Source: an uncultured Colwellia sp. (GTDB lineage: Bacteria; Pseudomonadota; Gammaproteobacteria; Enterobacterales; Alteromonadaceae). Taken from it: a stretch of DNA of 64,000 nt. Position numbers and translations under genes: made by a program. The notes under the pieces were generated by a model. It was not told the DNA's origin, made no database searches, and was given only the letters and a program-made list of their open reading frames with translations. The DNA lies in NCBI GenBank assembly GCA_913058395.1, contig CAJXQI010000002.1, forward strand, positions 1 through 64,000, read 5' to 3'. Position 1 is the first letter of the stretch, and each line of letters begins with the position of its first letter. Shown piece by piece: positions 5,105-35,301 of this stretch.

Positions 5105-5662
5105 CTAAGCAAAGTCCTCAAAATAAATGGAAATATTCTGATCTAGTTCTTTTAGGACAAAAAGCATAAAAATAGAATGCTTTAATAGGCTTGATGTACG
5201 ATTTAAGTCACACCAAGTTTTATCACCATACTTTCCACCATGAAATAAGTTATTTCTAACTAGCTTAACTGAATCAATAACCCTTTTGAGCGAGGGGGAA
5301 TTGAGATCTATAGTTTGCTCTGTCCAGTGTGTTTTAATCTCTTTTACATCACTCTCAGTAACGTAGAATATTTTTTGATTGTTAGGGGCTGTTTCAGGAT
5401 CAGTAAGATAACAGTAGCTATTGCTGCACTTTGCGGTAACAGAAAATTTACTTTTGTTGGCTTTTAAAAATGCATCCCAATCAGGCTCAGCATTTTTACC
5501 TTCTTCTCTTTTTTTTATATAACCCCCTTCTTTTAAAGCAAATTCAAATCTAGAAAAAACAACAAAAAACTTGAATATTTCTTTGCGAAGTTCATCTTGT
5601 TCCCCCCTTTCAAACGAAAATATTTCAAACATCTTTGACATGAAATTTGTTAATGAAATCAT
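5105..5662 (-). CDS. HEPN-motif protein (Rx4H: R-NNLF-H)
   Basis: 185 aa ORF with a C-terminal VRNNLFHGG motif typical of HEPN RNase domains; isolated between terminators. Confidence 0.4.
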   Translation of the reverse strand: MISLTNFMSKMFEIFSFERGEQDELRKEIFKFFVVFSRFEFALKEGGYIKKREEGKNAEPDWDAFLKANKSKFSVTAKCSNSYCYLTDPETAPNNQKIFYVTESDVKEIKTHWTEQTIDLNSPSLKRVIDSVKLVRNNLFHGGKYGDKTWCDLNRTSSLLKHSIFMLFVLKELDQNISIYFEDFA

Positions 5663-5835
5663 ACAATAAACCTTTGTTGTATCTATATGGTAATCTGAAT
5701 ATAGTAGAATGCTATTGTTTTCTTTAGTTGAAATTAAATCTCTTATTGTTACTAGTCGCGTTGCTTTTTATTCAAAAGTCACCGTTATAATAGGTCAAAA
5801 CAACTCGTTCTGGGTTTGCTTAAAAAGCACCAAAA

Positions 5836-21889: not shown

Positions 21890-21925
21890 TGAAGTAGGCT
21901 AGAAATACTAGCCTACTTTTTTATA
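21890..21925. terminator. rho-independent terminator (AGTAGGCTAG..CTAGCCTACT followed by TTTTTT)
   Basis: Perfect 10-bp stem followed by a T-run. Confidence 0.6.
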
Positions 21926-22749
21926 GTAATGACTTTTTTTCTCCGCTTTAATTTTAGGTCGTACTTTTTAAGTTTTTTGCCTGTAGAAGAAATAGTGATG
22001 TACCCTTGAAGCTCACATACGTCATGAGCACTATCATCAGTTGAAGACAAAATATCAGCAGTAGCATATATAGATGCTGTATTTTTAGTGGTGAAGTCTA
22101 ATTTTTTCAGTTCAATTCCGTCACACCAAAGATCCCTAGTTTCAGGGTTAATTGAAAGGTAATTACCTAAAAACCATTCAATATCCGATGGTAAAAATCC
22201 AAGACTAGAATCAGCTAAGCCTTCTTTAATAACGTAAAGCCCTGCGGCTACTTTTCTTTCATGACGTCTTGCATTGTTTTTTAATATGCGTTTGCAAGTA
22301 AATCTACGTTGTAAATTTTTTGAGCAATACATAAAGAATTCTACGTTGGGATCAGGCTCTAAAGTAGCTTCACGAACAATTTCATTCTCTAAAATTACCT
22401 CTAATTTAAGCTCAGAAACTTTGTATTCTTTATAACTATTATATTCACTATCTAATGTTGCTTTTGGTAATAGACCAACAAGACTTTCTTCCGATAACCC
22501 AATAAGCGACTCATCATAAATACAAAAGTCACTGGATGTGATTTTTATACGATCGAGTCTAAATTCATAGAATGAATCGAATTCAAGCTTTAAACCTAGT
22601 TTGTCATAACACCAAACTTCAGGCATGCAATCATCTTCTTTAGCATTCTGGTTTTTTATTTGTTCTGGTATACCAATAATTGATTGAACTTCCGCTCGAT
22701 TCATACCGAAAGTAATATTGCCAATACCGAATAAAGGACTAATTTTCAT
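21913..22749 (-). CDS. hypothetical protein (278 aa) within the RNA-repair cluster
   Basis: ORF only; lysine-rich C-terminus. Confidence 0.45.
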   Translation of the reverse strand: MKISPLFGIGNITFGMNRAEVQSIIGIPEQIKNQNAKEDDCMPEVWCYDKLGLKLEFDSFYEFRLDRIKITSSDFCIYDESLIGLSEESLVGLLPKATLDSEYNSYKEYKVSELKLEVILENEIVREATLEPDPNVEFFMYCSKNLQRRFTCKRILKNNARRHERKVAAGLYVIKEGLADSSLGFLPSDIEWFLGNYLSINPETRDLWCDGIELKKLDFTTKNTASIYATADILSSTDDSAHDVCELQGYITISSTGKKLKKYDLKLKRRKKVITIKK

Positions 22750-22844
22750 TTTAATTTAGCTAGGTGCTAAAGAGAGTTTTTTAAGATAAACCAATGTACC
22801 ATTTAACTTTTTATTATCAATAGAAACTATGATTTTAGATATTG

Positions 22845-23435
22845 TTAGGGTTTTCTATTAGCTCGTTTGTATTTAGCTTGGTATTCACGCCTCTGCTTCG
22901 TAACTTCATAAAGCACTATCCCCGTGGTTGTGGCTAAATTTAAGCTCTCAATCATTCCAAACATTGGTATTGATATGCAGGATTCACTTCTTTCAACAAC
23001 AATATCGCTTACACCACGAGATTCATTACCAAACCAAACAGCAAGTTTTGGTTGAGTATAATCAGCCTCGTGAAGCACATAGTTTTCCTTCCCCTTTATA
23101 TGAGGTGACGTCACTAAAGATATAAATCTATTTTTCTCAAGATGTTCTAAGCATTCTTCAGTGCTATTAAAGCGCTTAACAAAAGTCCATTTCGAAGCTG
23201 AAACAGATATTTTTGAAAGTGATTTACGTTCTCTCAATTCTTCCCAATCATCAGGTAGGGATTGCCTAGAATCTACAACGTAAATTTTTTCTACGCCAAG
23301 TGCATTGGCATTTCTAATCACAGAGCCTATGTTTTTTATATCCATAGGATTCTCTAGGACAGCGATTAAATTTTTACATTGGTATTCTTTAATTTCATCC
23401 GCCCGTTGGCGAATGGTACTCTTTGAATTATTCAT
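22845..23435 (-). CDS. SpoU/TrmH-family RNA 2'-O-ribose methyltransferase
   Basis: LIAVLENPMDIKNIGSVIRNANALGVEKIYVV (SPOUT motif 1) and C-terminal knot motifs. Confidence 0.8.
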   Translation of the reverse strand: MNNSKSTIRQRADEIKEYQCKNLIAVLENPMDIKNIGSVIRNANALGVEKIYVVDSRQSLPDDWEELRERKSLSKISVSASKWTFVKRFNSTEECLEHLEKNRFISLVTSPHIKGKENYVLHEADYTQPKLAVWFGNESRGVSDIVVERSESCISIPMFGMIESLNLATTTGIVLYEVTKQRREYQAKYKRANRKP

Positions 23436-23478
23436 ATTCTCTCGGTTCTGCGGTAAAAAGCCAAATAGAAATTAACAG

Positions 23479-23961
23479 CTACAATCCTATACGTTCCATT
23501 TCTGCCATTGATTTAAGATTCATTTTTTCCAGCTTTTCATAATTTTTATTTTTTGAAAATATAGGTGTGATGTACCCGTCTTCATGACTATAAGTCATGC
23601 ACCATGCGAAATTTTTAGGAAATATATGAACTTCATTCCCATGACAGTTTTTAATAGGCTTGGTTCTTGACACGTAAATTACCTTTTCATTTTCACCAAA
23701 GTTGTCTTCCATAATGTAGTAGCTAGGTGCTGCATGACGTTCATACTTTTCCTGTGCTTCTTCTTGAAAGAAATCTCCAGTCATATTCTCCCACAAAGTG
23801 TTCATACAGTACTTTAAGCCTCGAAAAGAAGTAATTGAAGGGCAAAAAATAGTGAGCCACTTTTGCCCAATGATTAGCGCTTTATCATCTTCAATGGATT
23901 CGTATTTTTGAATAGATAAATCTTTAATTACTTTGGGTGTTTTCATAGCTATTTCTTCCAA
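23479..23961 (-). CDS. hypothetical protein (160 aa)
   Basis: ORF only. Confidence 0.4.
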   Translation of the reverse strand: MEEIAMKTPKVIKDLSIQKYESIEDDKALIIGQKWLTIFCPSITSFRGLKYCMNTLWENMTGDFFQEEAQEKYERHAAPSYYIMEDNFGENEKVIYVSRTKPIKNCHGNEVHIFPKNFAWCMTYSHEDGYITPIFSKNKNYEKLEKMNLKSMAEMERIGL

Positions 23962-23998
23962 TAAATGTCATACCTTCGAACACATCAAAACCATTAAA

Positions 23999-24019
23999 AA
24001 ATCACCCGCATGTGGCGGG
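23999..24019 (-). terminator. rho-independent terminator after the nucleotidyltransferase gene (CACCCGC ACAT GCGGGTG followed by a T-run on the minus strand)
   Basis: Hairpin seen in sequence. Confidence 0.55.
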
Positions 24020-24025
24020 TGGTTT

Positions 24026-24847
24026 CTAATTTGACTGTAATACCTCAAGAAATAACTCATTCAAAACATCAAACCCAACAGTTCTCTCGTTAGACTTTTC
24101 ACCATACCTTTCAAGACGTTCAAGTTCAGCTTCAATGAACTTATTGAGTACTGGTATTGCTGGCGCGACTTCTTTCTCTAGGCTAACTCGCTTGCGTTCC
24201 AATAATTTAGATATTTCTGCATCAAGTAGCTTATCGTCTGCAACCAACGTTCTTAGCTGATCAAAAACTATAGGCGCAGGCTCGTTGTACTTCTCTATCC
24301 ATTTAATGGCTAATAACGGTCGTAGTACGTAAAAGTACTTTTTGAGCGGCACCATGTCGCTTTTCAAATACCCACGATAGTTAGTCTTAGCCATACTACG
24401 GTAGTGATAAACTCCTTTTGCATTGGAATAGACACTTGTTATCAAATCTCTAGCTTTTGCGGCAAAATGATTATCATCAACATACACGATTGGCGACTGT
24501 AACCATTCAACTATGGCAGGGTTGGATTTCCAAAAAAGCTTTAATGCTTTTCGGATATCCCAGCCATTGATATCTATCTCATCAACAATCGGATATTCGA
24601 TAACATCACGTTTGTCTTCAAGGTTAACCGCTAAGTACCAGTCTTTAGGATGAGCATATATAAACCTAACATCAAAATCGCTATTTGGAGATTCAAATCC
24701 CCATGCGCGGCTACCAGACTCAATAGCATAGAGTATTTTGACTCCATGCTCGGCTTCTGCCGCCTTTATTCTGCGTAAGATTTCTTTTTGAACATCTTCG
24801 TCTATTTTATTCTTTTGTCTTTGTAAATTATTAGATTCCATTTTCAT
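24026..24847 (-). CDS. Pol-beta-superfamily nucleotidyltransferase (RlaP-like; predicted RNA-repair associated)
   Basis: ESGSRAWGFESPNSDFDVRFIY: GS...D.D NTase catalytic motif; sits immediately after cca with zero intergenic gap. Confidence 0.55.
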   Translation of the reverse strand: MKMESNNLQRQKNKIDEDVQKEILRRIKAAEAEHGVKILYAIESGSRAWGFESPNSDFDVRFIYAHPKDWYLAVNLEDKRDVIEYPIVDEIDINGWDIRKALKLFWKSNPAIVEWLQSPIVYVDDNHFAAKARDLITSVYSNAKGVYHYRSMAKTNYRGYLKSDMVPLKKYFYVLRPLLAIKWIEKYNEPAPIVFDQLRTLVADDKLLDAEISKLLERKRVSLEKEVAPAIPVLNKFIEAELERLERYGEKSNERTVGFDVLNELFLEVLQSN

Positions 24848-26116
24848 CTACCTAAGAGCTATCCGCTCATTTTCTGTTTTACTCTCTGCTAAAAAAACAC
24901 GTAAAGACTTTATTTCAGCTTCACGTACAGCACCACCTATATCAGGGCCTTTTTTTCCTTGTGAAATTGCCAATTGTACAGCGGCTTTTTTATCCAACTG
25001 AGTTAACGCGTTTAGTAATGATTGCGCTAATAACAATTGTGGGTAAGCTCTATTAACAAAGGTTTCTCCTCTGCCTTGAGCATCACATAAACATGCTTGG
25101 AGAAACTGCTTAAAACGTATTGGATGCTCTAGTGCGTTCATATTTTCAATGATTAATTTGTGCAATTTTTTTGGCGTAAGCTCAAATAGCTTGTGGCATC
25201 TTGTATGATTATCACTGGTTAAGATGGCTAACGCTTTCAATCGATTGGGCACTTTTAGCCGTTCACAAAATGCTTCAATAACTGCAATACCTTCATGTTC
25301 ATGACCTAGCAAATTTCCTCGTTCTTGATGGCAATAAGCTTTACCAAAATCATGAGTTAATGCTGCAAATCGAGTGTCAATATCAAAACTTAAATCCGCT
25401 GCTCGCTTCACAACGAGCATTGTATGTGTATAAACATCACCTTCTGGGTGATGGTTTTCAGGCTGTGGTACACCTACCATTGCTTCTAATTCTGGGAATA
25501 TTCCTAACCCGTTAAGCGCTTCAAAAAATAATTGCGGATGTTTTTCACCAAGCGCTTTTTCAGTTTCTTTCCATACACGCTCAGACACTAAATGAGTTAA
25601 TTCACCATTATCCCTAAGCTGTTTCATAAGCGCATATGTATCAGGATGAATTGTCCATTCTTCACCGTACCGGGCTAGAAAGCGAGCAACACGCAGTACA
25701 CGCACAGGGTCTTCTGCAAAAGCATTAGTTGTGTGTCTTAATACCTTATTTTTTAAATCTGTTTGGCCATTAAAAGGGTCGATAACTTTGCCATCACCAT
25801 TTAACGCCATTGAATTTATGGTTAAATCGCGTCTAGCTAAATCTTCTTCTAAAGTAACGGATGTGCTGGCGTCTACTGCAAAACCTGTATACCCCTTACC
25901 ATTTTTTCGCTCTTTACGTGCTAAGGCATATTCATCTTTAGTTTCTGGGTGCAAGAAAACAGGAAAATCACTTCCGACGGATTGAAAACCTAGTGATGCC
26001 ATTGTTTCTGTTGTTTCACCCACAACAACATAATCTTGGTCTTTTGATTTATGGCCAAGTAACGAGTCCCTAACTGCGCCTCCTACTAAATAGACATTTT
26101 CCAATTTCTTATTCAT
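24848..26116 (-). CDS. cca: multifunctional CCA tRNA nucleotidyltransferase with HD phosphohydrolase domain
   Basis: NVYLVGGAVRDSLLG...DQDYVV head domain; HD domain (HTMLV...LTHDFGK). Confidence 0.9.
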   Translation of the reverse strand: MNKKLENVYLVGGAVRDSLLGHKSKDQDYVVVGETTETMASLGFQSVGSDFPVFLHPETKDEYALARKERKNGKGYTGFAVDASTSVTLEEDLARRDLTINSMALNGDGKVIDPFNGQTDLKNKVLRHTTNAFAEDPVRVLRVARFLARYGEEWTIHPDTYALMKQLRDNGELTHLVSERVWKETEKALGEKHPQLFFEALNGLGIFPELEAMVGVPQPENHHPEGDVYTHTMLVVKRAADLSFDIDTRFAALTHDFGKAYCHQERGNLLGHEHEGIAVIEAFCERLKVPNRLKALAILTSDNHTRCHKLFELTPKKLHKLIIENMNALEHPIRFKQFLQACLCDAQGRGETFVNRAYPQLLLAQSLLNALTQLDKKAAVQLAISQGKKGPDIGGAVREAEIKSLRVFLAESKTENERIALR

Positions 26117-26180
26117 TACTTTTCCATTACCTTCTTTATTAGATTTGGCAATCCGCTTTTTTGATTAATATTTATTAATC

Positions 26181-27215
26181 TTACTCTAGTGAAACCCTCC
26201 ACAATGTATCAGTTAATTGCTTCAACAGGATCTCTTTTCCTAAAAGTTGTTTAATAACATCAACATTGGTCGATGTATGCAAGCTTGGCTTTGTTGTTGT
26301 AAAACTTCCACTTCCCGCCAACGCAATCAATAATAACAATTGATCGGCTAAGTGCTCTTCAACAGCAGCTTGAGCATAAATATACTTATTTACTCTCCCA
26401 GCAGCCCGTTTTGCTACTCTTTCTGCCGAAACACCCAACTCGCCAACAACCTCAAATACATTGCGATGTGTTTTACTATCAATACATAACTGAAAACTAT
26501 TACCTGGGCCAGGGGTAGTGACTTCCTGAACTTGACCTAAAGCATCCTGCCAATCAAGAATTTCCTGAGCCTTTGTAATTTCTCTTTGCCCTATACTTGC
26601 TGGCAGTAAGCTTATCAGAGCATTAAGAGAGCAATTATCCATATCACTAGCAAAATCACATCCTGCATCAGTCAAATGAATTGGCTTTAATGCTTGGGTT
26701 GGCTCAATAACAATTTGCCATTTACCACCGCCAGCAGGATAAAAACCTAACGTAGAAATACGAACGTTGCAGTTCACTCCCATACTTTTTAACACAGGCA
26801 AAAATGATTGTTCCAAAAAACTCAATGAAGGAGACATACCATTATGTGTACCCCCCTCAAATGTAATCGTTGAACTTCCCTTTGCTAATGCCAATACGGG
26901 TAAAATAGTCTGACACACGAGAACCGTACTTCCTGCGGTGCCAATGGCAAATTGAAAATTGCCTGACTTAACTTTCCCAGGAGAAAATCTGATGCGAGTT
27001 GAGCCAAGTTCAACACCTTCTGTAATAGCACCACAAATTTCTTGTGCTGCTAAAACGGAAGTTAAATGTTGACGTAACAAGCCTGTTTTCTTTCTTCCTG
27101 CTCTGATATTTATCAGTTCGATGTTTTGCTGAGTAAAAATAGATAGTGTTAGTGCCGTCCTTAGCACCTGACCACCACCTTCTCCTTGTGAACCATCGAT
27201 TATCATGTATTTCAT
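26181..27215 (-). CDS. rtcA: RNA 3'-terminal phosphate cyclase
   Basis: IIDGSQGEGGGQVLRTALTLS signature. Confidence 0.9.
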   Translation of the reverse strand: MKYMIIDGSQGEGGGQVLRTALTLSIFTQQNIELINIRAGRKKTGLLRQHLTSVLAAQEICGAITEGVELGSTRIRFSPGKVKSGNFQFAIGTAGSTVLVCQTILPVLALAKGSSTITFEGGTHNGMSPSLSFLEQSFLPVLKSMGVNCNVRISTLGFYPAGGGKWQIVIEPTQALKPIHLTDAGCDFASDMDNCSLNALISLLPASIGQREITKAQEILDWQDALGQVQEVTTPGPGNSFQLCIDSKTHRNVFEVVGELGVSAERVAKRAAGRVNKYIYAQAAVEEHLADQLLLLIALAGSGSFTTTKPSLHTSTNVDVIKQLLGKEILLKQLTDTLWRVSLE

Positions 27216-27240
27216 TATTTATCCTTCATAATCGTTAACA

Positions 27241-28464
27241 TTAACCTTTAACGCATACTATCTGTTTCAAGGTGTATACTACTTCAACAAGATCCTTTTG
27301 TGCTTCCATCACCTTTTCAATATCTTTGTATGCGTGCGGTATTTCATCAATTACTGAGGCATCCTTTCTACACTCCACACCTTCTGTCGCTGCAATTTGA
27401 TCATCAACGTTATAGACCTTTTTTGCCTTTGTTCTAGACATTACTCTACCTGCACCGTGACTACAGCTATTGAAACTTTCAGGATTTCCTAAACCTCTTA
27501 CAATAAATGATTTAGCCCCCATACTGCCGGGAATAATGCCCATTTCACCTTTTTCAGCACGAACTGCGCCTTTTCTTGTGACATAACAATCCTTACCAAA
27601 GTGATGCTCACGCGAGATATAGTTATGATGACAATTTACTGCTAAATCAGCCGTTGAAAACTCAATAGGTAATTGCTTTCTTAGAGCGGCAATAGCATTG
27701 AACATCATTATTTCACGATTCTTTAAAGCAAAGTCTTGTGCCCACTCAACAGCTTCAACATAATCATCAAAATAGTCACTTCCTTCTTCAAGGTAAGCCA
27801 AGTCCATATCTGGCAAATTAATTTGATGACGTTGCATTTCTTTTTTCGCTAACTCGATAAAGTAAGTACCAATTCTATTCCCAACTCCACGACTACCTGA
27901 ATGCAACATGATCCAAACCGCATCATTTTCATCTAGGCAAAGCTCTAAGAAATGATTTCCAGTACCCATAGTACCTAAATGCTTCACATTATTACTTTTT
28001 TTAATGGCTGGATGTTTTTCACAAATCCGTTCAAATCTCGCCTGTAACTTCAACCACTCACCCGCAACTACATCAGGTACGTTATGCCAAGAACCTCTAT
28101 CTGCTCGGCCTCTACCACTAGTTCGTCCATGTGGGACAGCAGCTTCAAAAGCATGTCTTATCGCAGATAAATTATCTGGCAACTGACTGGCTGTTAATGT
28201 TGTTTTGGTAGCGACCATACCACAACCAATATCTACACCAACTGCTGCTGGAATTACTGCTTCCACTGATGGGATAACACTTCCAATAGTCGCACCTTTA
28301 CCTAGATGTACATCAGGCATTACCGCGATATGTGAATGAACCAATGGCATAGTCGCAATGTTATTTAGCTGTTGCTGAGCTTGCTCTTCAAATGGAACAC
28401 CTTTAGTCCATGCTTTGATTGTCGCTCTTCCTTCATTTTCAATAACGTTATAATTTCTACACAT
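27241..28464 (-). CDS. rtcB: RtcB RNA ligase (canonical, 407 aa)
   Basis: MPDVHLGKG, GVDIGCGM and GTGNHFLE motifs. Confidence 0.9.
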   Translation of the reverse strand: MCRNYNVIENEGRATIKAWTKGVPFEEQAQQQLNNIATMPLVHSHIAVMPDVHLGKGATIGSVIPSVEAVIPAAVGVDIGCGMVATKTTLTASQLPDNLSAIRHAFEAAVPHGRTSGRGRADRGSWHNVPDVVAGEWLKLQARFERICEKHPAIKKSNNVKHLGTMGTGNHFLELCLDENDAVWIMLHSGSRGVGNRIGTYFIELAKKEMQRHQINLPDMDLAYLEEGSDYFDDYVEAVEWAQDFALKNREIMMFNAIAALRKQLPIEFSTADLAVNCHHNYISREHHFGKDCYVTRKGAVRAEKGEMGIIPGSMGAKSFIVRGLGNPESFNSCSHGAGRVMSRTKAKKVYNVDDQIAATEGVECRKDASVIDEIPHAYKDIEKVMEAQKDLVEVVYTLKQIVCVKG

Positions 28465-28553
28465 TATTTTTTCCTTAATTCTCTTCTACTTTTTAGTAAG
28501 CGGGCTACAGCTAATTCTGTAGCCCTTTGTCTTATGTTTGCGTTATGTGCTGG

Positions 28554-29708
28554 CTAGGCTATTTTTACTACGCCATTCATCAAGCCTTCCAAACCACCGT
28601 AGACGGTTAAGCTATCAATTCTCTCGGCTACTTTTTCAAGTGCTTCTAACTCTTTTAAGCGCATCAGCGTAGGGTTGTTTTCCATTACCTTCGCTGTGTT
28701 ATGCAAGCTTCTAGTCGCTGAAGTTTCTTCACGCCTTTTGATCACATTAGCTTCAGCCGCTTTTTGCGCTTCTACTACCTGATTTAATATTGCTTTCATT
28801 TCACCGGGTAAAATGATGTCCTTCACACCAACACTCAAAAGAGATATACCAATGTCTGCCAAACGCTCAACCACTAGTTCTTTTACTGTTTCATTGACAT
28901 ACAATTTATCCAAAAGGATATCATCTAATGATTTAGTACCAACCGCTTCTCTTAAAGCTAATTGCAGAGTTTTATAAACAAAATCATCTACTTTATCGAC
29001 ACTACGTGCCGCAAGCTCAGCGTCATGCACTTTAATGTTCGCACTTAAATTTATTCGCAAACTTACTCTGTCTTTACTCAGGATTTCCTGTCCAGAAATC
29101 TCAAGCAATTGTGTTCTGCAATCAAAAGACTTTAACTCAATGGCATGGTTAAACTGCCAAAAACCATGCTGACCAGGCACTAACCTTTTGATCAATTGTC
29201 CATTAACATACAACAAACCGACATGATCTTTAGCGACATTCAAATCAGCAATAGGCTTCACTGCGACTGTTCGCTCACTTCTTATCAATCGTGTCGATGT
29301 ATTTGCACCAGCCCGATTAATTAAGAAAAGTGTTTTATCATCTACATCTATATTTTCATCAATAGACAATTTTTCTAATCTTATTTCGCCAGCATCTTTC
29401 CATAGATATAAATGCTCGCTTGGCGCAACTACACCTCTAAGCAAGTCGTTAACATACAACATACCTACCTCGGTACTGTCTAGTTTCCAGTGAGAAATAT
29501 GCTCATTTAATTCTTTATGATTTCGGTATAACCTTTCTGCATTTTTTTCTGAAAAATACAGCGTATTGATATCAAAAGTGACAAAGTCTAGCTCATTCTT
29601 GATATCCCAAATTTTGTGTTTTCCTGGTGTTAGTACTCTGTCTAGTTCTTGATTTTTAAACACCAAAACTCTTTGATTTTCTGCTACTAATTTAGTTTTT
29701 CTAAACAT
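28554..29708 (-). CDS. SPFH/Band-7 (slipin-like) domain protein without TM anchor; first gene of the sigma-54 rtc operon
   Basis: C-terminal half shows a Band-7 profile (VGVKDIILPGEMKAILNQVVEAQKAAEAN); N-terminal half has an internal repeat. Confidence 0.7.
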   Translation of the reverse strand: MFRKTKLVAENQRVLVFKNQELDRVLTPGKHKIWDIKNELDFVTFDINTLYFSEKNAERLYRNHKELNEHISHWKLDSTEVGMLYVNDLLRGVVAPSEHLYLWKDAGEIRLEKLSIDENIDVDDKTLFLINRAGANTSTRLIRSERTVAVKPIADLNVAKDHVGLLYVNGQLIKRLVPGQHGFWQFNHAIELKSFDCRTQLLEISGQEILSKDRVSLRINLSANIKVHDAELAARSVDKVDDFVYKTLQLALREAVGTKSLDDILLDKLYVNETVKELVVERLADIGISLLSVGVKDIILPGEMKAILNQVVEAQKAAEANVIKRREETSATRSLHNTAKVMENNPTLMRLKELEALEKVAERIDSLTVYGGLEGLMNGVVKIA

Positions 29709-29800
29709 CTTTAATTTCCTTATTTAATCCTCTTTCGAGGAGGTGTTAGTAAGGGTTGAATACTTATTTGATAAAGGCCCAAAACTTTATTGTTATGGGG

Positions 29801-29816
29801 AGCATCCTGCTTGCCA
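29801..29816 (-). promoter_or_regulatory. sigma-54 (-24/-12) promoter candidate for the SPFH-rtcB-rtcA-cca operon
   Basis: Minus strand reads TGGCAA-GCAGG-ATGCT versus consensus TGGCAC-N5-TTGCW; about 95 nt upstream of the SPFH start; divergent RtcR is a sigma-54 activator. Confidence 0.4.
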
Positions 29817-29888
29817 GTACTTATTAGTTCTTGGCGTTTATCAAACATTGGTACTAACTACTTACTAACGTTTCATTACATATCATCG

Positions 29889-29959
29889 TATAAAGGGTGG
29901 GAATTGAACCCACAACAAACGGGTTAAAGCCGCTGCTCTACCAATTGAGCTACCTGTAT
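29889..29959 (-). ncRNA. tRNA-like element 1 (71 nt, no CCA, acceptor mismatch, anticodon loop reads UUA if 7-nt)
   Basis: Folds by eye: acceptor ATACAGG/CCTTTAT (1 mismatch), D-arm GCTC-AATTGGTA-GAGC, T-arm GTGGG-TTCAATT-CCCAC; conserved U8 A9 G18G19 TTC. Confidence 0.5.
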
Positions 29960-30027
29960 TTAAGGAAGGATTCGAACCTTCGCCCAACAGCACGAAGCTG
30001 TTGCTCTATCCTCTGAGCTACTTAAAT
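29957..30027 (-). ncRNA. tRNA-like element 2 (71 nt, no CCA, 5-nt anticodon loop or 4-bp stem with anticodon UCG)
   Basis: Perfect acceptor ATTTAAG/CTTAAAT, D-arm GCTC-AGAGGATA-GAGC, anticodon arm ACAGC-TTCGT-GCTGT, T-arm GAAGG-TTCGAAT-CCTTC. Confidence 0.5.
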
Positions 30028-30029
30028 AG

Positions 30030-30100
30030 TTATTAAGATGGGAATCGAACCCATGACTGACGAAATCAATTCGCTGCTCTACCTACTGAGCTACTTAATA
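30030..30100 (-). ncRNA. tRNA-like element 3 (71 nt, no CCA, shortened anticodon loop)
   Basis: Perfect acceptor TATTAAG/CTTAATA, D-arm GCTC-AGTAGGTA-GAGC, anticodon arm GCGAA-TTGAT-TTCGT, T-arm ATGGG-TTCGATT-CCCAT. Confidence 0.5.
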
Positions 30101-30356
30101 TTTGTTTGATTAGGTATACGCATTTGCATTGCTTAGCGCACCAGTGTGACTTTTTGAATCACATCCTATTAATCAGACACTTAAGTTATTACAAGTCATG
30201 TGCCAAGATAATTTAAACCGTAAAAAAAATAATTAACCTGTTGTTTATATATGAGAAATTATGTGTTGCCGTGTGTTTTATATGTTTTAAGTTGAATTAA
30301 AAACCACTAGTAGATATCATTAAGGATATTTAATCTATCTATATGGATATGCTGTA

Positions 30357-31958
30357 GTGAAGAATACTGTTGTTGTGAGTTTGATAGGAACTCAATTAGA
30401 CTATGTTGGTAAAAGAGTTGATAAATGGGCCAAATGGCGACCTAATGTCAGTTTGTGTAGCCAGGAAGACTTAATAGTTAGTCAGCTTCATATGTTGCAT
30501 GATAATCATAGCAGTCGTCTTGCTAATAATGTGGCTGTAGATATTGAATCTGTTTCTCCTGAAACTAATGTTTCATTACATCAAGTCAATTTTCGCGACC
30601 CTTGGGATTTTGAAGAAGTTTATGCCAAACTTTTCGATTGGTGCCAAGAGCAAAAATTCGATACCGATCAAAATGATTATTTATTCCATATAACAACAGG
30701 CACTCACGTTGTTCAGATTTGTAGTTACCTCCTTACAGAGAGTCGTCACTTTCCAGGCCGCCTAATTCAAACATCACCCGATCACAACAATAAAAACAAA
30801 TCGATTGGCCGTATACAAATTATCGATTTAGATCTATCTAAATATGACCAATTAGCTACAAGGTTTGACGTTGAACACCAAGAAGGTAAAGAGTTCTTAA
30901 AAGGTGGTATTGAGACTAAAAATAAGGCTTTTAACAGACTCATTACTCAGATAGAAAAAGTCGCTATTCGATCACAAGATCCCATGTTGTTAACTGGACC
31001 AACAGGAGCTGGTAAAAGCCAGCTAGCAACACGTATATTCCAATTAAAGAAAAAGCGCTCGATGTTAAAAGGCACATTAGTCTCGGTGAACTGTGCAACC
31101 TTAAAAGGTGAAAATGCTATGGCAGCATTGTTTGGCCATACCAAAGGAGCATTCACAGGTGCAGTAAAATCTAGAGATGGTTTTTTGCTTAGGGCTAATA
31201 ACGGTGTTTTGTTCTTGGATGAAATTGGTGAACTTGGCTTGGAAGAACAAGCCATGCTGCTACATGCTATAGAAAATAAAACTTTCCACCCTGTGGGCAG
31301 TGATACGCCAGTTCAAAGTAATTTTCAACTAATCGCAGGAACCAATAGAGATTTAAAACAGGAGATTGAAAAAGGGTCTTTCCGTGAAGATTTATTAGCT
31401 CGTATTAACCTTTGGACATATGAGTTACCTGCGCTTAAAGATAGAAAAGAAGATATTCCTGTTAACGTTGACTATGAGATAGATCTTTTTGCCAAAAAAA
31501 CAGGGCACCGTGTGCAATTTAACAAAGAAGCACAAAGTACCTTTATTGGCTTCTCTACTTCTAACGAGGCGCTATGGTCTGGGAACTTTCGTGATTTAAG
31601 CTCTGCGATAACCCGGCTGTGTACTTTGGCAGATTCTTCTAGAATCACTGTAGATGATGTCGAAGAAGAAGTAGAACGATTAAAACGAGCATGGAACCCA
31701 TCAGGCCAGCAATCAACTAACAATATTTTATATAAGTACCTTCTAAAGGAACAAGTTGAAAATTTAGATACGTTTGATGCTAACCAACTTAGGTATGTAC
31801 TTGATACATGCCAACGCCATAATAGTATGGCCTCAGCAGGTAGAGAGCTATTTGATGTTAGCCGAATCTTAAAATCTCAACCAAATGATTCCAGCCGCCT
31901 ACAGAAGTACTTGAGTAAATTTGGTTTGAAATGGGCGGATATTTTAGCAAAAAGTTAG
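30357..31958 (+). CDS. rtcR: RtcR, sigma-54-dependent transcriptional activator with N-terminal CARF-like sensor domain
   Basis: GTG start; N-terminus MKNTVVVSLIGTQLDYVG as in E. coli RtcR; AAA+ sigma-54 interaction domain (LTGPTGAGKS, GVLFLDEIGEL). Confidence 0.9.
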   Translation: MKNTVVVSLIGTQLDYVGKRVDKWAKWRPNVSLCSQEDLIVSQLHMLHDNHSSRLANNVAVDIESVSPETNVSLHQVNFRDPWDFEEVYAKLFDWCQEQKFDTDQNDYLFHITTGTHVVQICSYLLTESRHFPGRLIQTSPDHNNKNKSIGRIQIIDLDLSKYDQLATRFDVEHQEGKEFLKGGIETKNKAFNRLITQIEKVAIRSQDPMLLTGPTGAGKSQLATRIFQLKKKRSMLKGTLVSVNCATLKGENAMAALFGHTKGAFTGAVKSRDGFLLRANNGVLFLDEIGELGLEEQAMLLHAIENKTFHPVGSDTPVQSNFQLIAGTNRDLKQEIEKGSFREDLLARINLWTYELPALKDRKEDIPVNVDYEIDLFAKKTGHRVQFNKEAQSTFIGFSTSNEALWSGNFRDLSSAITRLCTLADSSRITVDDVEEEVERLKRAWNPSGQQSTNNILYKYLLKEQVENLDTFDANQLRYVLDTCQRHNSMASAGRELFDVSRILKSQPNDSSRLQKYLSKFGLKWADILAKS

Positions 31959-32768: not shown

Positions 32769-33161
32769 ATGAAAGCACTTTTGATATGGAGAAAAATAAT
32801 GAAATTAATAAGTTACCAAAGAAGCGCAACTAAAAAATATAGCTCTAAAGCTAACTCTGTTAAAAAACAAAGATCTGCATGTAAATTTTGGGCAATTAAG
32901 AATAAGCACGAAATAATAGAACAATATCAAGATGATGGATTTGGAAGTTTCTCCCAACTAGCTCCATGTTTTCAACAAATCATAAGGGCAATAAAGCAAG
33001 GCAACCCGAATTTCGAAGGTATAGTAGTTCATTCATACTCAAGAATATCTCGAAATTTACTCAATTTGATTCAAGTAAAACAATTCCTCAAAGATCAAAG
33101 TATTACATTATTTTCAGTTACTGAGTATTGTCCAATCATACCTAATAATAAAGAAGAGTAG
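32769..33161 (+). pseudogene. serine recombinase fragment (part of the resolvase catalytic domain)
   Basis: GIVVHSYSRISRNLLNLIQVKQFLKDQSITLFSVTE parallels VIVYALNRISRDLLILLKGVEHLEKHNVQLFSVIE of the intact integrase at 33645. Confidence 0.5.
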
Positions 33162-33644: not shown

Positions 33645-35219
33645 ATGAAACTAGCAAGATATCGTAGAGTTAGCTCTAAAAGACAAGTAAATGAAGGTGA
33701 GTCTCTGGCTGGGCAAATTCAAAAAACGGACGAATGGGCAAAGGCAAATGGACATCAAATTATTGAAGATTACGTTGATGCAGGTTTTACAGGTCGTAAT
33801 GAAAATAGGAAAGGCTATCAGAATTTATTAGCTGATGTAGCAGAACCAGGGTCAGAAATAGAGGCTGTAATTGTTTATGCTCTCAATAGGATAAGTAGGG
33901 ATTTATTAATATTACTAAAAGGAGTCGAACATTTAGAAAAACATAATGTTCAATTATTTTCTGTGATTGAAAATCTTCCTAAAGATAGAAGCACTAATCG
34001 ATTGATGTTGGCTGTAACTGGTGCTGTATCGCAGAATCAAAGTGATGTTAGCTCTGTTTTTGTTAAAGACCGTATGAATGAAACTGCTGAACAAGGTTTT
34101 TACACAGGAGGACGTATTCCATACGGTTATTCAACCATCAAAGTTAAAATAGAAGGAATAAAAAAGAAACGTTCGAGACTTGTGATCATTGAAGAGCAAG
34201 CGTCTCTAGTTCGAGACATTTTCAATGCCGTTATAAGAGGTAGTAGTGGAAAAGGAGACGGATTAAAAACAATAGCAACTGATTTAAATAAGCGTGGCCT
34301 TAAACATGGAGTTAATAACTGGACCATAACAACATTAGGAAGAATGTTACATGATTCAACATATATGGGTGTACGGGTTTTTGGAAAAAATAGAAAAGAG
34401 GCTGAAAACAAACCAATAAAGAGTAAATGCCCTTCTATTGTATCAGAATCAATATTTAAACAGGCACAGAAAGCATTAAAGAGCAGACAACTTACTAACA
34501 GAGCATGTAAAGGAGTACGTTCTAACAGCCTTTTAACAGGGCTGCTTAAATGCTCTTGTTGCAACTCAAATTTAGTTATTAATACTGGCAAGAGTGGGCA
34601 ATACAAATATTACAAATGCAGTAAAAAAATAAAGGCCAACATTAATATATGTAATCAAAAGCCAATACCACAGTTATTAATTGAAAATAAAATTATGGAT
34701 GTGATATCTGATACGATACTGGAAACAGAATATCTAAATAAAATTTCAGAACATGTAAAAAAGATTCTTAAAGGTAAAGCTAAAAGTGATGATCAAATTC
34801 GGCTTTCTAAAAACAATCAATTAGCAGAAACCAAACAAAGTCTCAAAAAACTATTCATGATGCTCAGTAAAGATGAAATCGCTGCCGATAAAGATCTAGA
34901 TGAGATTTTAGATGACTTAAAAAATAAACGAAATACTCTTGAAGAAGAGTTACAGATTATAAAGCGCAGATCCAGTATTCCAATTTGGAAATTTGGTGAT
35001 AAGAAGAAATTAATATTTATAGAGACAATTAAAAAAGTTCTACTATCTGGTGATAAGAGTTTAACTAAGGCATTTTTGAGAACGATAATATCTAAAATTG
35101 ACGTTAAACCAACTGAAGTAACAATCATTGGAAGTAATATTCAAATGTTAAATGCCATTTCTAAAACAAAAATGGGCACCTCTAATGAGGTGCCCACCTT
35201 CGTATCAATGTGGCGGTGA
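33645..35219 (+). CDS. large serine recombinase (integrase): resolvase catalytic domain, recombinase domain, zinc ribbon, coiled coil
   Basis: YRRVSSKRQ...GESLAGQ catalytic Ser region; recombinase-domain motifs; CSCCNSNL..YKCSKK zinc ribbon; 524 aa; 3' end overlaps the tRNA-Ser 3' end. Confidence 0.9.
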   Translation: MKLARYRRVSSKRQVNEGESLAGQIQKTDEWAKANGHQIIEDYVDAGFTGRNENRKGYQNLLADVAEPGSEIEAVIVYALNRISRDLLILLKGVEHLEKHNVQLFSVIENLPKDRSTNRLMLAVTGAVSQNQSDVSSVFVKDRMNETAEQGFYTGGRIPYGYSTIKVKIEGIKKKRSRLVIIEEQASLVRDIFNAVIRGSSGKGDGLKTIATDLNKRGLKHGVNNWTITTLGRMLHDSTYMGVRVFGKNRKEAENKPIKSKCPSIVSESIFKQAQKALKSRQLTNRACKGVRSNSLLTGLLKCSCCNSNLVINTGKSGQYKYYKCSKKIKANINICNQKPIPQLLIENKIMDVISDTILETEYLNKISEHVKKILKGKAKSDDQIRLSKNNQLAETKQSLKKLFMMLSKDEIAADKDLDEILDDLKNKRNTLEEELQIIKRRSSIPIWKFGDKKKLIFIETIKKVLLSGDKSLTKAFLRTIISKIDVKPTEVTIIGSNIQMLNAISKTKMGTSNEVPTFVSMWR

Positions 35220-35301
35220 GATAGAGATTTGAACTCTAGAAGGGCTACAAACCCTTGCCGGTTTTCAAGACCGGTGCTTTCGACCACTCAGCCATCTCAC
35301 C
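35211..35301 (-). tRNA. tRNA-Ser (anticodon UGA), class II with long variable arm, CCA encoded
   Basis: Folded by eye: acceptor GGTGAGA/TCTCACC, discriminator G, CCA; anticodon stem CCGGT/ACCGG, loop CTTGAAA; T-arm TAGAG-TTCAAAT-CTCTA. Confidence 0.9.

Follow-up and report, generated by a model that had tools for sequence, protein, structure and literature searches.

A stretch of 64,000 nucleotides (nt) from an uncultured Colwellia sp. (contig CAJXQI010000002.1, positions 1 to 64,000; hereafter the window) carries an array of three head-to-tail cloverleaf units, each of 71 nt, on the minus strand at 29889-30100, within the intergenic stretch that separates rtcR from an RNA-repair operon whose first gene encodes a slipin. 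Judged from sequence, the units are real, conserved, non-decoding tRNA-shaped RNAs. We assign them, from a secondary description of the class, as three-copy members of the predicted b7a-tRNAs (band 7-associated tRNAs), and we put at about 60% the probability that, once processed, they serve the adjacent slipin as a non-decoding RNA partner in RNA repair. The features most worth following are the composite leader RNA that contains the units and its link to the slipin.

The three units were detected by ARAGORN and by the Rfam tRNA model (RF00005, gathering score 29), and two of them were also scored with an in-house covariance model, R1.

30030-30100, minus strand: tRNA-like unit 1, type A (ARAGORN; Rfam tRNA 60.9 bits; R1 81.6 bits)
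29957-30027, minus strand: tRNA-like unit 2, type B (ARAGORN; Rfam tRNA 61.4 bits; R1 77 bits)
29889-29959, minus strand: tRNA-like unit 3, type C (ARAGORN; Rfam tRNA 55.5 bits when scanned alone)

Units 1 and 2 are separated by 2 nt, and units 2 and 3 share 3 nt. The corresponding minus-strand ARAGORN calls are 30029-30100 (tga), 29956-30027 (tcg), and 29888-29959 (tta). E-values against the Rfam tRNA model of about 1e-11 to 1e-12 rule out chance resemblance. Unit 3 was missing from the cmscan of the whole window because of its 3-nt overlap with unit 2; cmscan and cmsearch discard overlapping hits, so that units overlapping by 1-3 nt vanish from whole-region scans.

A structural parse found U8 and A9, a 4-base pair (bp) D stem, and a GG in the D loop of all three units. 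Unit 1 pairs all seven positions of its acceptor stem (TATTAAG/CTTAATA) and has the T stem ATGGG/CCCAT, the T loop TTCGATT, and an anticodon arm of 5 bp with the 5-nt loop TTGAT. The acceptor stem of unit 2 (ATTTAAG/CTTAAAT) is also fully paired; its T stem is GAAGG/CCTTC, its T loop is TTCGAAT, and its 5-bp anticodon arm carries the 5-nt loop TTCGT. Unit 3, the nearest to slipin, pairs six of the seven acceptor positions (ATACAGG/CCTTTAT, with a C4-U69 mismatch) and has the T loop TTCAATT and a 4-bp anticodon arm with the 7-nt loop CTTTAAC. Units 1, 2, and 3 have the 3' trailers A-CTA, A-CAG, and A-CGA, respectively. Specifically, no CCA is encoded 3' of any of the three units, unlike the genuine tRNA-Ser of the window (35211-35301), where the CCA is encoded. 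The minimum-energy fold of unit 1 is a cloverleaf (z -3.0), as is that of unit 3. The original prediction, made from the letters of the DNA, had described three minus-strand units of 71 nt with at most 3 nt of overlap or gap, tRNA-like D and T arms, U8/A9, odd anticodon arms, and no CCA; this description was borne out in full, and the ARAGORN and Infernal tRNA searches that it had proposed recovered all three units.

The array ends 180 nt upstream of the slipin gene, on the same strand.

28554-29708, minus strand: slipin, a Band-7 (SPFH) protein of 384 amino acids (Pfam Band_7 2.1e-28)

Homologues of this protein carry the name "slipin family protein." A slipin protein scan that kept one genome per species gave 77 loci (numbered with the prefix L) from Gammaproteobacteria, Myxococcota, Planctomycetota, Verrucomicrobiota, Leptospiraceae, and others; with the window these make up 78 sources. 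The census of units merged ARAGORN, Rfam tRNA, R1, and a structural scan, because overlapping hits are dropped and because ARAGORN missed many divergent units that covariance models found. Units lie upstream of slipin on the same strand in 68 of the 77 loci and in the window (69/78 sources), at distances of 160-870 nt. One unit is present in 34 of these 69 sources, two in 29, and three in 6, and unit-bearing slipin loci reach Planctomycetota, Myxococcota, and Leptospiraceae. Nine sources lack a unit; in two of them a contig end truncates the locus, and five others match Band-7 only in part. Conservation of this breadth, which had been named as a check on the prediction, shows that the array is not random debris.

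Searches of the 78 sources with tblastn found the sigma-54 activator RtcR in 53, the RNA ligase RtcB in 54, the RNA 3'-phosphate cyclase RtcA in 38, the nucleotidyltransferase RlaP in 32, and the CCA enzyme in 8. An RtcB neighborhood is thus frequent but not obligatory. In four loci (L050, L052, L053, and L076) rtcB lies upstream of the RNA, yet the RNA stands directly before slipin. A further group (L047-L049, L051, L056-L066, L069, and L071) has slipin and the tRNA-like RNA with RtcB, RtcA, and RtcR not found within 6 kilobases (kb); the neighbors of these pairs are unrelated genes, such as those for thioredoxin, Rieske oxygenase, and sulfotransferase. In the loci that lack Rtc genes, slipin and the tRNA-like RNA behave as a stand-alone two-part module. 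Since the RNA is present without Rtc genes and stays beside slipin when rtcB is upstream, it is tied to slipin and not to RtcR or RtcB. The coupling to RtcR and RtcB that had been proposed for the array therefore gives way to a coupling to slipin.

Across different families, the slipin, RtcB, and leader RNAs of L001-L046 are 75-95% identical to those of the window; the families and genera that share the cassette include Colwellia, Paraglaciecola, Vibrio, Endozoicomonas, Pseudoalteromonas, Alteromonas, and Shewanella. Such identity across families suggests lateral spread of the whole cassette. A search for slipin relatives in viral contigs found none. In some loci, tRNA-like remnants without a D arm, consisting of a hairpin and a GGGTTCGANTCCCC T arm, stand beside full units (L019 at about 5650-5690, L021, L030/L031 at 5706-5755, L034, L036, and L003 at 5772-5832), and in L048-L056 a conserved element consisting of a T arm only is found just 3' of the full unit.

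The conservation of the units is unevenly distributed over the cloverleaf. Orthologous units from six three-unit genera (the window, Colwellia, Paraglaciecola, Glaciecola, Endozoicomonas sp., and Alteromonas) sort into types A, B, and C, each with its own acceptor and T-stem sequences; type-A orthologues of unit 1, for example, are found in L001, L002, L004, L005, L073, and others. Identity among the six genera is 92-100% in the acceptor, D, and T arms, compared with 50% at the third codon positions of slipin. The anticodon stems are 72-75% identical, with compensatory changes (ACAGC/GCTGT, ATAGC/GCTAT, and ACGGC/GCCGT among orthologues of unit 2). Anticodon loops of equal length are 60% identical, and loop lengths differ in 28 of 45 comparisons. 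Across 94 parsed units the loops range from 3 to 9 nt, and type-C orthologues have loops such as CGTTTAA, TTTTTAA, CTAGTAA, and CAATTAA, so that the anticodon is not kept.

Covariation was counted on 104 hits aligned under the guidance of the model. Pairing reached 98% in the D, anticodon, and T helices, and 499 double-change cells were counted; shuffles gave 133 and slid partners 77-134. Pairing in the acceptor helix was lower, 81% overall, with pairs 1-3 unpaired in 25-50% of the sequences. Taken together, these figures point to strong selection on the acceptor/T/D half of the units and to an anticodon arm of which no more than the helix is retained. It is the conserved half that tRNA-processing and CCA enzymes recognize. 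An NCCA follows the acceptor in 19 of the 94 units, compared with about 1.5 expected by chance.

These data bear directly on whether the units could be tRNA genes, ordinary or suppressor, or tRNA pseudogenes in decay, placed beside an rtc operon by chance. Their tRNA scores are high, ARAGORN assigns anticodons that include tta (ochre suppressor) for unit 3, and the counterpart in Pseudomonas aeruginosa is annotated as a tRNA-Arg (PMC13637947). Nevertheless, the 5-nt loops of units 1 and 2 depart from the canonical loop of 7 nt with U33 and a purine at position 37, ARAGORN gives orthologous units differing anticodons or none, and the units lack the encoded CCA seen in the tRNA-Ser of the window. 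The position beside slipin, moreover, recurs in 68 of 77 species. Decay is excluded by the purifying selection and the covariation. We regard this explanation as effectively excluded, and the earlier proposal that the units fold like tRNA and are under purifying selection instead of decaying is upheld by the covariation and by the identity of the arms between genera.

The array is part of a leader of about 470 nt that contains, in order, a sigma-54 motif, a 5' domain, the three units, a rod, a small hairpin, and the ribosome-binding site AAGGA (29721-29717).

30190-30205, minus strand: sigma-54-type promoter motif TGGCACATGACTTGTA (-24/-12), predicted from sequence and its conservation
30101-30181, minus strand: 5' structured domain of about 80 nt (covariation, model R3)
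29742-29871, minus strand: rod-shaped structured RNA of about 130 nt with six stacked helices (covariation, model R2)
29728-29741, minus strand: small GNRA-capped hairpin CCUC-GAAA-GAGG (fold -7.2 kcal/mol)

The promoter motif has the form TGGCAC-N5-TTGT (30205-30190) and lies about 105 nt upstream of unit 1 and upstream of the whole leader. In 42 of 49 gammaproteobacterial sources with a full leader, TGGCAC-N5-TTG precedes the first unit by 100-170 nt, and two more have TGGTAC. The same form of the motif (TGGCACGACGGTTGCA) occurs in the rtcR-rtcB intergenic region of Escherichia coli K-12, and the E. coli rtcB operon is reportedly sigma-54- and RtcR-dependent. A terminator scan of 29000-31000 found no terminator-like sites. 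With the motif upstream of the array and no terminator before slipin, the array is most likely co-transcribed with the operon. The original prediction had placed the array upstream of the sigma-54 promoter, in the region of RtcR enhancer sites; this position is not supported, because the array lies downstream of the conserved motif.

The 5' domain directly precedes the first unit and begins a few nt from the expected transcription start. It is closed by helix H1 (TGATTA at 30175-30170 with TAATCA at 30112-30107), within which lie the hairpin H2 (GTGAT-TCAAAAA-GTCAC) and a GG/CC-closed H3-H4 hairpin. In alignment A6 (32 sequences) the paired cells make up 78%, where slid partners give 29-44%, and double-change cells number 88, compared with 10-28. 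R3 matches the domain in 49 sources (the window, all of L001-L047, and L073). With filters off, weaker matches that end 5-27 nt before the unit were obtained in L048, L049, L050, L052, L055, and L076, and those in L053 and L056 were marginal (E 0.04-0.1); the low-scoring matches are credible because of their constant position before a tRNA-like unit. The divergent copies in distant taxa (L048-L056 and L076) include loci without a preceding promoter.

The rod has the closing helix GUUAGUAAG/CUUACUAAC and a near-invariant apical loop, GCAAGCAGGAUGCUCCC. In the MAFFT alignment A4 (27 sequences) 84% of its cells are paired, compared with 33-43% with slid partners, and 252 double-change cells compare with 66-104. 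The window sequence alone folds with -41.5 kcal/mol (z -6.6). R2 finds the rod in 48 sources (from the window, L001-L047, and L073) and weakly in L028. With filters off it was not found at the expected place in the distant loci L048-L054, where other conserved sequence, the T-arm-only element included, lies between unit and slipin. The small hairpin, which sits between the rod and the ribosome-binding site, is not followed by a U-tract, and relatives have hairpins of other sequence at this position.

Within the rod, TGGCAAGCAGGATGCT (29816-29801) has the GG-N10-GC form of a sigma-54 site and was considered as the operon promoter; it is the only such motif downstream of the array and presumably the one that the original prediction had in view. 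It was rejected because an RNA hairpin with covarying pairs has this sequence as its apical loop. The first G of the motif, at the second-to-last stem position of the hairpin, is A in 15 of 27 aligned sequences, its "spacer" AGCAGGA is conserved, and its flanks form the covarying stem; a sigma-54 site would have a conserved GG at -24, a conserved GC at -12, and a free spacer. The status of this sequence also affects a reading of the repeats as a DNA-level element, that is, as RtcR enhancer or architectural-protein sites upstream of the promoter. Such an element would suit repeats that lie within the rtcR-operon intergenic region with the GG-N10-GC downstream of them. With that sequence accounted for as a hairpin loop, the conserved TGGCAC-N5-TTG lying upstream of the array, and the same RNAs found in loci without RtcR, little is left for this explanation. 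Indeed, compensatory changes are a signature of RNA structure and not of protein-binding DNA. It too is effectively excluded.

The head-to-tail arrangement of the units, 0-3 nt apart and directly between two conserved structured modules, is compatible with a cis-acting role, in which the tRNA shapes would be RNase P and RNase Z cut sites, as in mitochondrial "tRNA punctuation" or MALAT1-mascRNA. Cleavage would then free the 5' domain and the rod, or set a stable 5' end of the slipin-rtcBA mRNA, and the excised units would be functionless. A copy number of one to three, together with the T-arm-only remnants, is what would be expected if one good cut site suffices. However, the 92-100% identity of all three paralogous types across genera goes far beyond this need, types A, B, and C each keep their own acceptor and T-stem sequences, and the enrichment of an encoded CCA in some lineages suggests that the excised RNA has a life of its own. 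We therefore consider it improbable that the units are processing marks and nothing else.

In the reading that we favor, the units as b7a-tRNA partners of slipin, transcription from the RtcR-dependent promoter would cover the leader of about 470 nt as well as slipin-rtcB-rtcA-cca-rlaP. The leader would be cut into separate stable RNAs by RNase P at the 5' ends and by RNase Z/E at the 3' ends, and the CCA-less units would be completed by a CCA-adding enzyme, such as the one whose gene belongs to the operon. Oligomeric soluble slipin would then join with the tRNA-like RNAs, and probably also with the 5' domain and the rod, in a ribonucleoprotein (RNP). This particle may scaffold or gate the repair of cleaved tRNA-like substrates by RtcB and RtcA, as proposed for Ro60-YrlA in Salmonella-type rtc operons. 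The AlphaFold2 model of the slipin shows three beta repeats at the N terminus along with an SPFH domain and a long helix. The closest solved relative is stomatin (residues 192-371), and solved relatives have 16-26 chains per deposited entry, which would suit a protein that forms cages.

Several observations count against this scheme. All of its functional steps are reached by inference, and membership of the b7a-tRNA class follows a secondary description. The CCA gene lies inside the operon in 8 of 78 sources, so a dedicated operon CCA step is not general, and we rejected the operon enzyme as a general partner of the RNA. Acceptor pairs 1-3 are often open, with seven of seven pairs formed in 21 of the 94 parsed units; these open pairs, and the 3-nt overlap of unit 3, make standard RNase P and CCA recognition uncertain for many units. 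The -12 element is TTGT, TTGA, or TTGG in most loci, the consensus being TTGC. Finally, the level of PA4581.1, the P. aeruginosa counterpart, was unchanged upon induction of the Rtc proteins (PMC13637947), which argues against simple co-regulation unless the processed RNA is stable or separately transcribed.

A different use for the same conserved half is as a decoy or bait. The units would mimic tRNA bodies to bind anticodon nucleases or ribotoxins by competitive inhibition; alternatively, a nuclease would cut the unit with the 7-nt loop, and the fragments with 2',3'-cyclic-phosphate ends would feed the CARF domain of RtcR in positive feedback. The kept acceptor/T/D body is what tRNA-binding enzymes see, the loops vary, and those of type C are often like the loops of Lys, Asn, or Met tRNAs (NNTTTAA, CAGTTAA, and CTCATAA). 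Fragments of tRNA activate the rtc operon, and YrlA's tRNA-like domain has been suggested to be a competitive inhibitor of anticodon nuclease (both Hughes et al. 2020, PMC7790460). However, anticodons vary even among type-C units, which leaves no single nuclease specificity to be imitated, and the RNA follows slipin and not RtcR, with many loci lacking RtcR or RtcB. An RNA made only from an RtcR-dependent promoter, moreover, cannot be the primary sensor. In either variant, we judge a decoy or bait function to be unlikely.

The slipin-partner reading can be taken further. The array may be one module of a multidomain noncoding RNA not previously reported as a composite, made up of the 5' domain, one to three units, and the rod, which together with the vault-protein-like slipin would form a bacterial RNP. 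The repair scaffolds built of RNA and protein, Ro60-Y RNA and vault-vault RNA, would thereby gain a third kind, in some loci wired to RtcB and RtcR and in others stand-alone. In this composite the 5' domain stands directly before the first unit in every case, from Alteromonadales to Leptospiraceae (the latter through weaker matches). We hold it tentatively, with the odds somewhat against it.

The remaining genes of the operon and the divergent regulator are as follows.

27241-28464, minus strand: RtcB RNA ligase (Pfam RtcB 1.3e-128)
26181-27215, minus strand: RtcA RNA 3'-phosphate cyclase (Pfam RTC 7.7e-75)
24848-26116, minus strand: CCA-adding/repair enzyme, a class II nucleotidyltransferase with an HD domain (NCBIfam NF008137; Pfam PolyA_pol and HD)
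24026-24847, minus strand: RlaP, an RNA repair pathway nucleotidyltransferase of the pol-beta family (Pfam PF10127 2.2e-87)
22845-23435, minus strand: SpoU-family RNA 2'-O-methyltransferase, at the distal end of the row (Pfam SpoU_methylase 1.2e-28)
30357-31958, plus strand: RtcR, divergent sigma-54 activator with the RtcR/CARF N-terminal domain (Pfam RtcR 6.8e-81; Sigma54_activat 1.2e-47)

The CCA enzyme scores 489 bits against NF008137, "multifunctional CCA addition/repair protein" (cut-off 451). The best NCBIfam match of the SpoU methylase is TrmH (tRNA G18 2'-O-methylase), below the cut-off, and this gene is common to the window and L001 only. The operon extension at 22845-26116 comprises the CCA enzyme, RlaP, a 160-amino acid open reading frame (ORF) without a family, and the SpoU methylase; of the other sources, only Colwellia psychrerythraea GAB14E (L001) has all four. 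Between rtcR and tRNA-Ser(tga) lie a recombinase fragment and a large serine recombinase (CcrB/XisF-like), at 32769-33161 and 33645-35219 on the plus strand, and the recombinase ORF overlaps the 3' end of the tRNA-Ser, which is on the minus strand. The rtc cluster may stand on an island integrated at tRNA-Ser. A second, att-like copy of the tRNA-Ser 3' end was not found in the window at three or fewer mismatches.

The window is a compact test case for the substrates of bacterial RtcB and for the roles of accessory Ro60-Y RNA and Band-7-RNA modules. It brings together a sigma-54/RtcR switch, three distinguishable units, two covarying RNA domains, and a soluble slipin, and the same locus adds RtcB, RtcA, a CCA repair enzyme, a second nucleotidyltransferase, and a 2'-O-methyltransferase. 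Because the RNA accompanies slipin even where Rtc genes are absent, the question shifts from how RtcB uses the RNA to which RNP the slipin forms. There is also a practical consequence. Annotation pipelines label such elements as tRNA genes (tRNA-Arg or suppressor tRNAs), which misleads analyses of tRNA sets and codon usage.

The class to which we assign the units is described by Wang et al. (2018, bioRxiv 10.1101/312249), who credit its prediction to Burroughs and Aravind (2016). In their description b7a-tRNA is a predicted noncoding RNA, strongly tRNA-like, that lies beside a Band-7 protein and RtcB; it is called a functional analogue of YrlA and was experimentally unvalidated as of 2018. The resemblance to tRNA (60.9, 61.4, and 55.5 bits, the gathering score being 29), the adjoining Band-7 (SPFH) gene, and the RtcB neighborhood named in that description are all found here. 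The difference is that one RNA is described there, whereas the window has three paralogous types, two of them with 5-nt loops, and two flanking modules. Neither the three-copy form nor the flanking modules are mentioned in that account of the class, and the 5' domain and the rod, which match no family in Rfam 15, are possibly new. The term "b7a-tRNA" was not found beyond Wang et al. in the literature searched, and Rfam has no family for it. The original prediction had held that no tRNA-like element had been described in an rtc locus; in view of the Burroughs and Aravind prediction, as credited by Wang et al., and of PA4581.1, that claim to novelty fails.

PA4581.1 ("tRNA-Arg4") lies between rtcR (PA4581) and PA4582-PA4585 and carries the annotation of a tRNA-Arg lacking CCA (PMC13637947, from 2026). 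Alone among the counterparts, it has been detected experimentally, by quantitative reverse-transcription PCR, at about half the level of canonical tRNAs (PMC13637947). The PA14 orthologue of PA4582 is the SPFH protein PaFlo8, in the rtc locus (PMC13086221). Like the array, PA4581.1 is thus tRNA-like and without CCA, and it precedes an SPFH gene in the space between rtcR and the rtc genes. By description, which is the basis of this comparison, PA4581.1 differs in being a single copy with a 7-nt loop and in being annotated as a decoder. The authors draw no link between PA4581.1 and b7a-tRNA (PMC13637947).

The likeness to YrlA and other Y RNAs, which had also been pointed out for the array, is an analogy already drawn in the literature. 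In both cases tRNA-like, non-decoding modules lie inside an RtcR/sigma-54 RtcB-RtcA operon, rsr-yrlBA-rtcBA in the case of the Y RNAs, beside a putative scaffold protein (PMC4201824, PMC7790460). Membership of the Y RNAs was nevertheless rejected. The YrlA search that had been suggested for the array gave 33.0 and 32.4 bits with the Rfam model (RF02553), less than half of the gathering score of 69; the matches cover model positions 24-84 only and arise from T-arm/D-arm similarity across the unit junctions. The T/D module of YrlA is closed by a Ro-binding stem, whereas the units are open cloverleaves with an anticodon-type hairpin of their own. The partners differ as well, being a TROVE protein for YrlA and an SPFH protein here, and no Ro60/TROVE domain was found among the nine ORFs scanned (the eight-gene row at 21913-29708 and rtcR).

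On the protein side, there is a close parallel with the vault particle, which is built from the major vault protein (MVP), with its SPFH-like shoulder domain, and small vault RNAs. Among the Foldseek hits of the slipin model, MVP gave the longest aligned stretch, 461 columns with an E-value of 2e-9. The vault and the slipin module have in common N-terminal beta repeats, an SPFH-type domain, and a long helix, in each case together with small structured noncoding RNAs.

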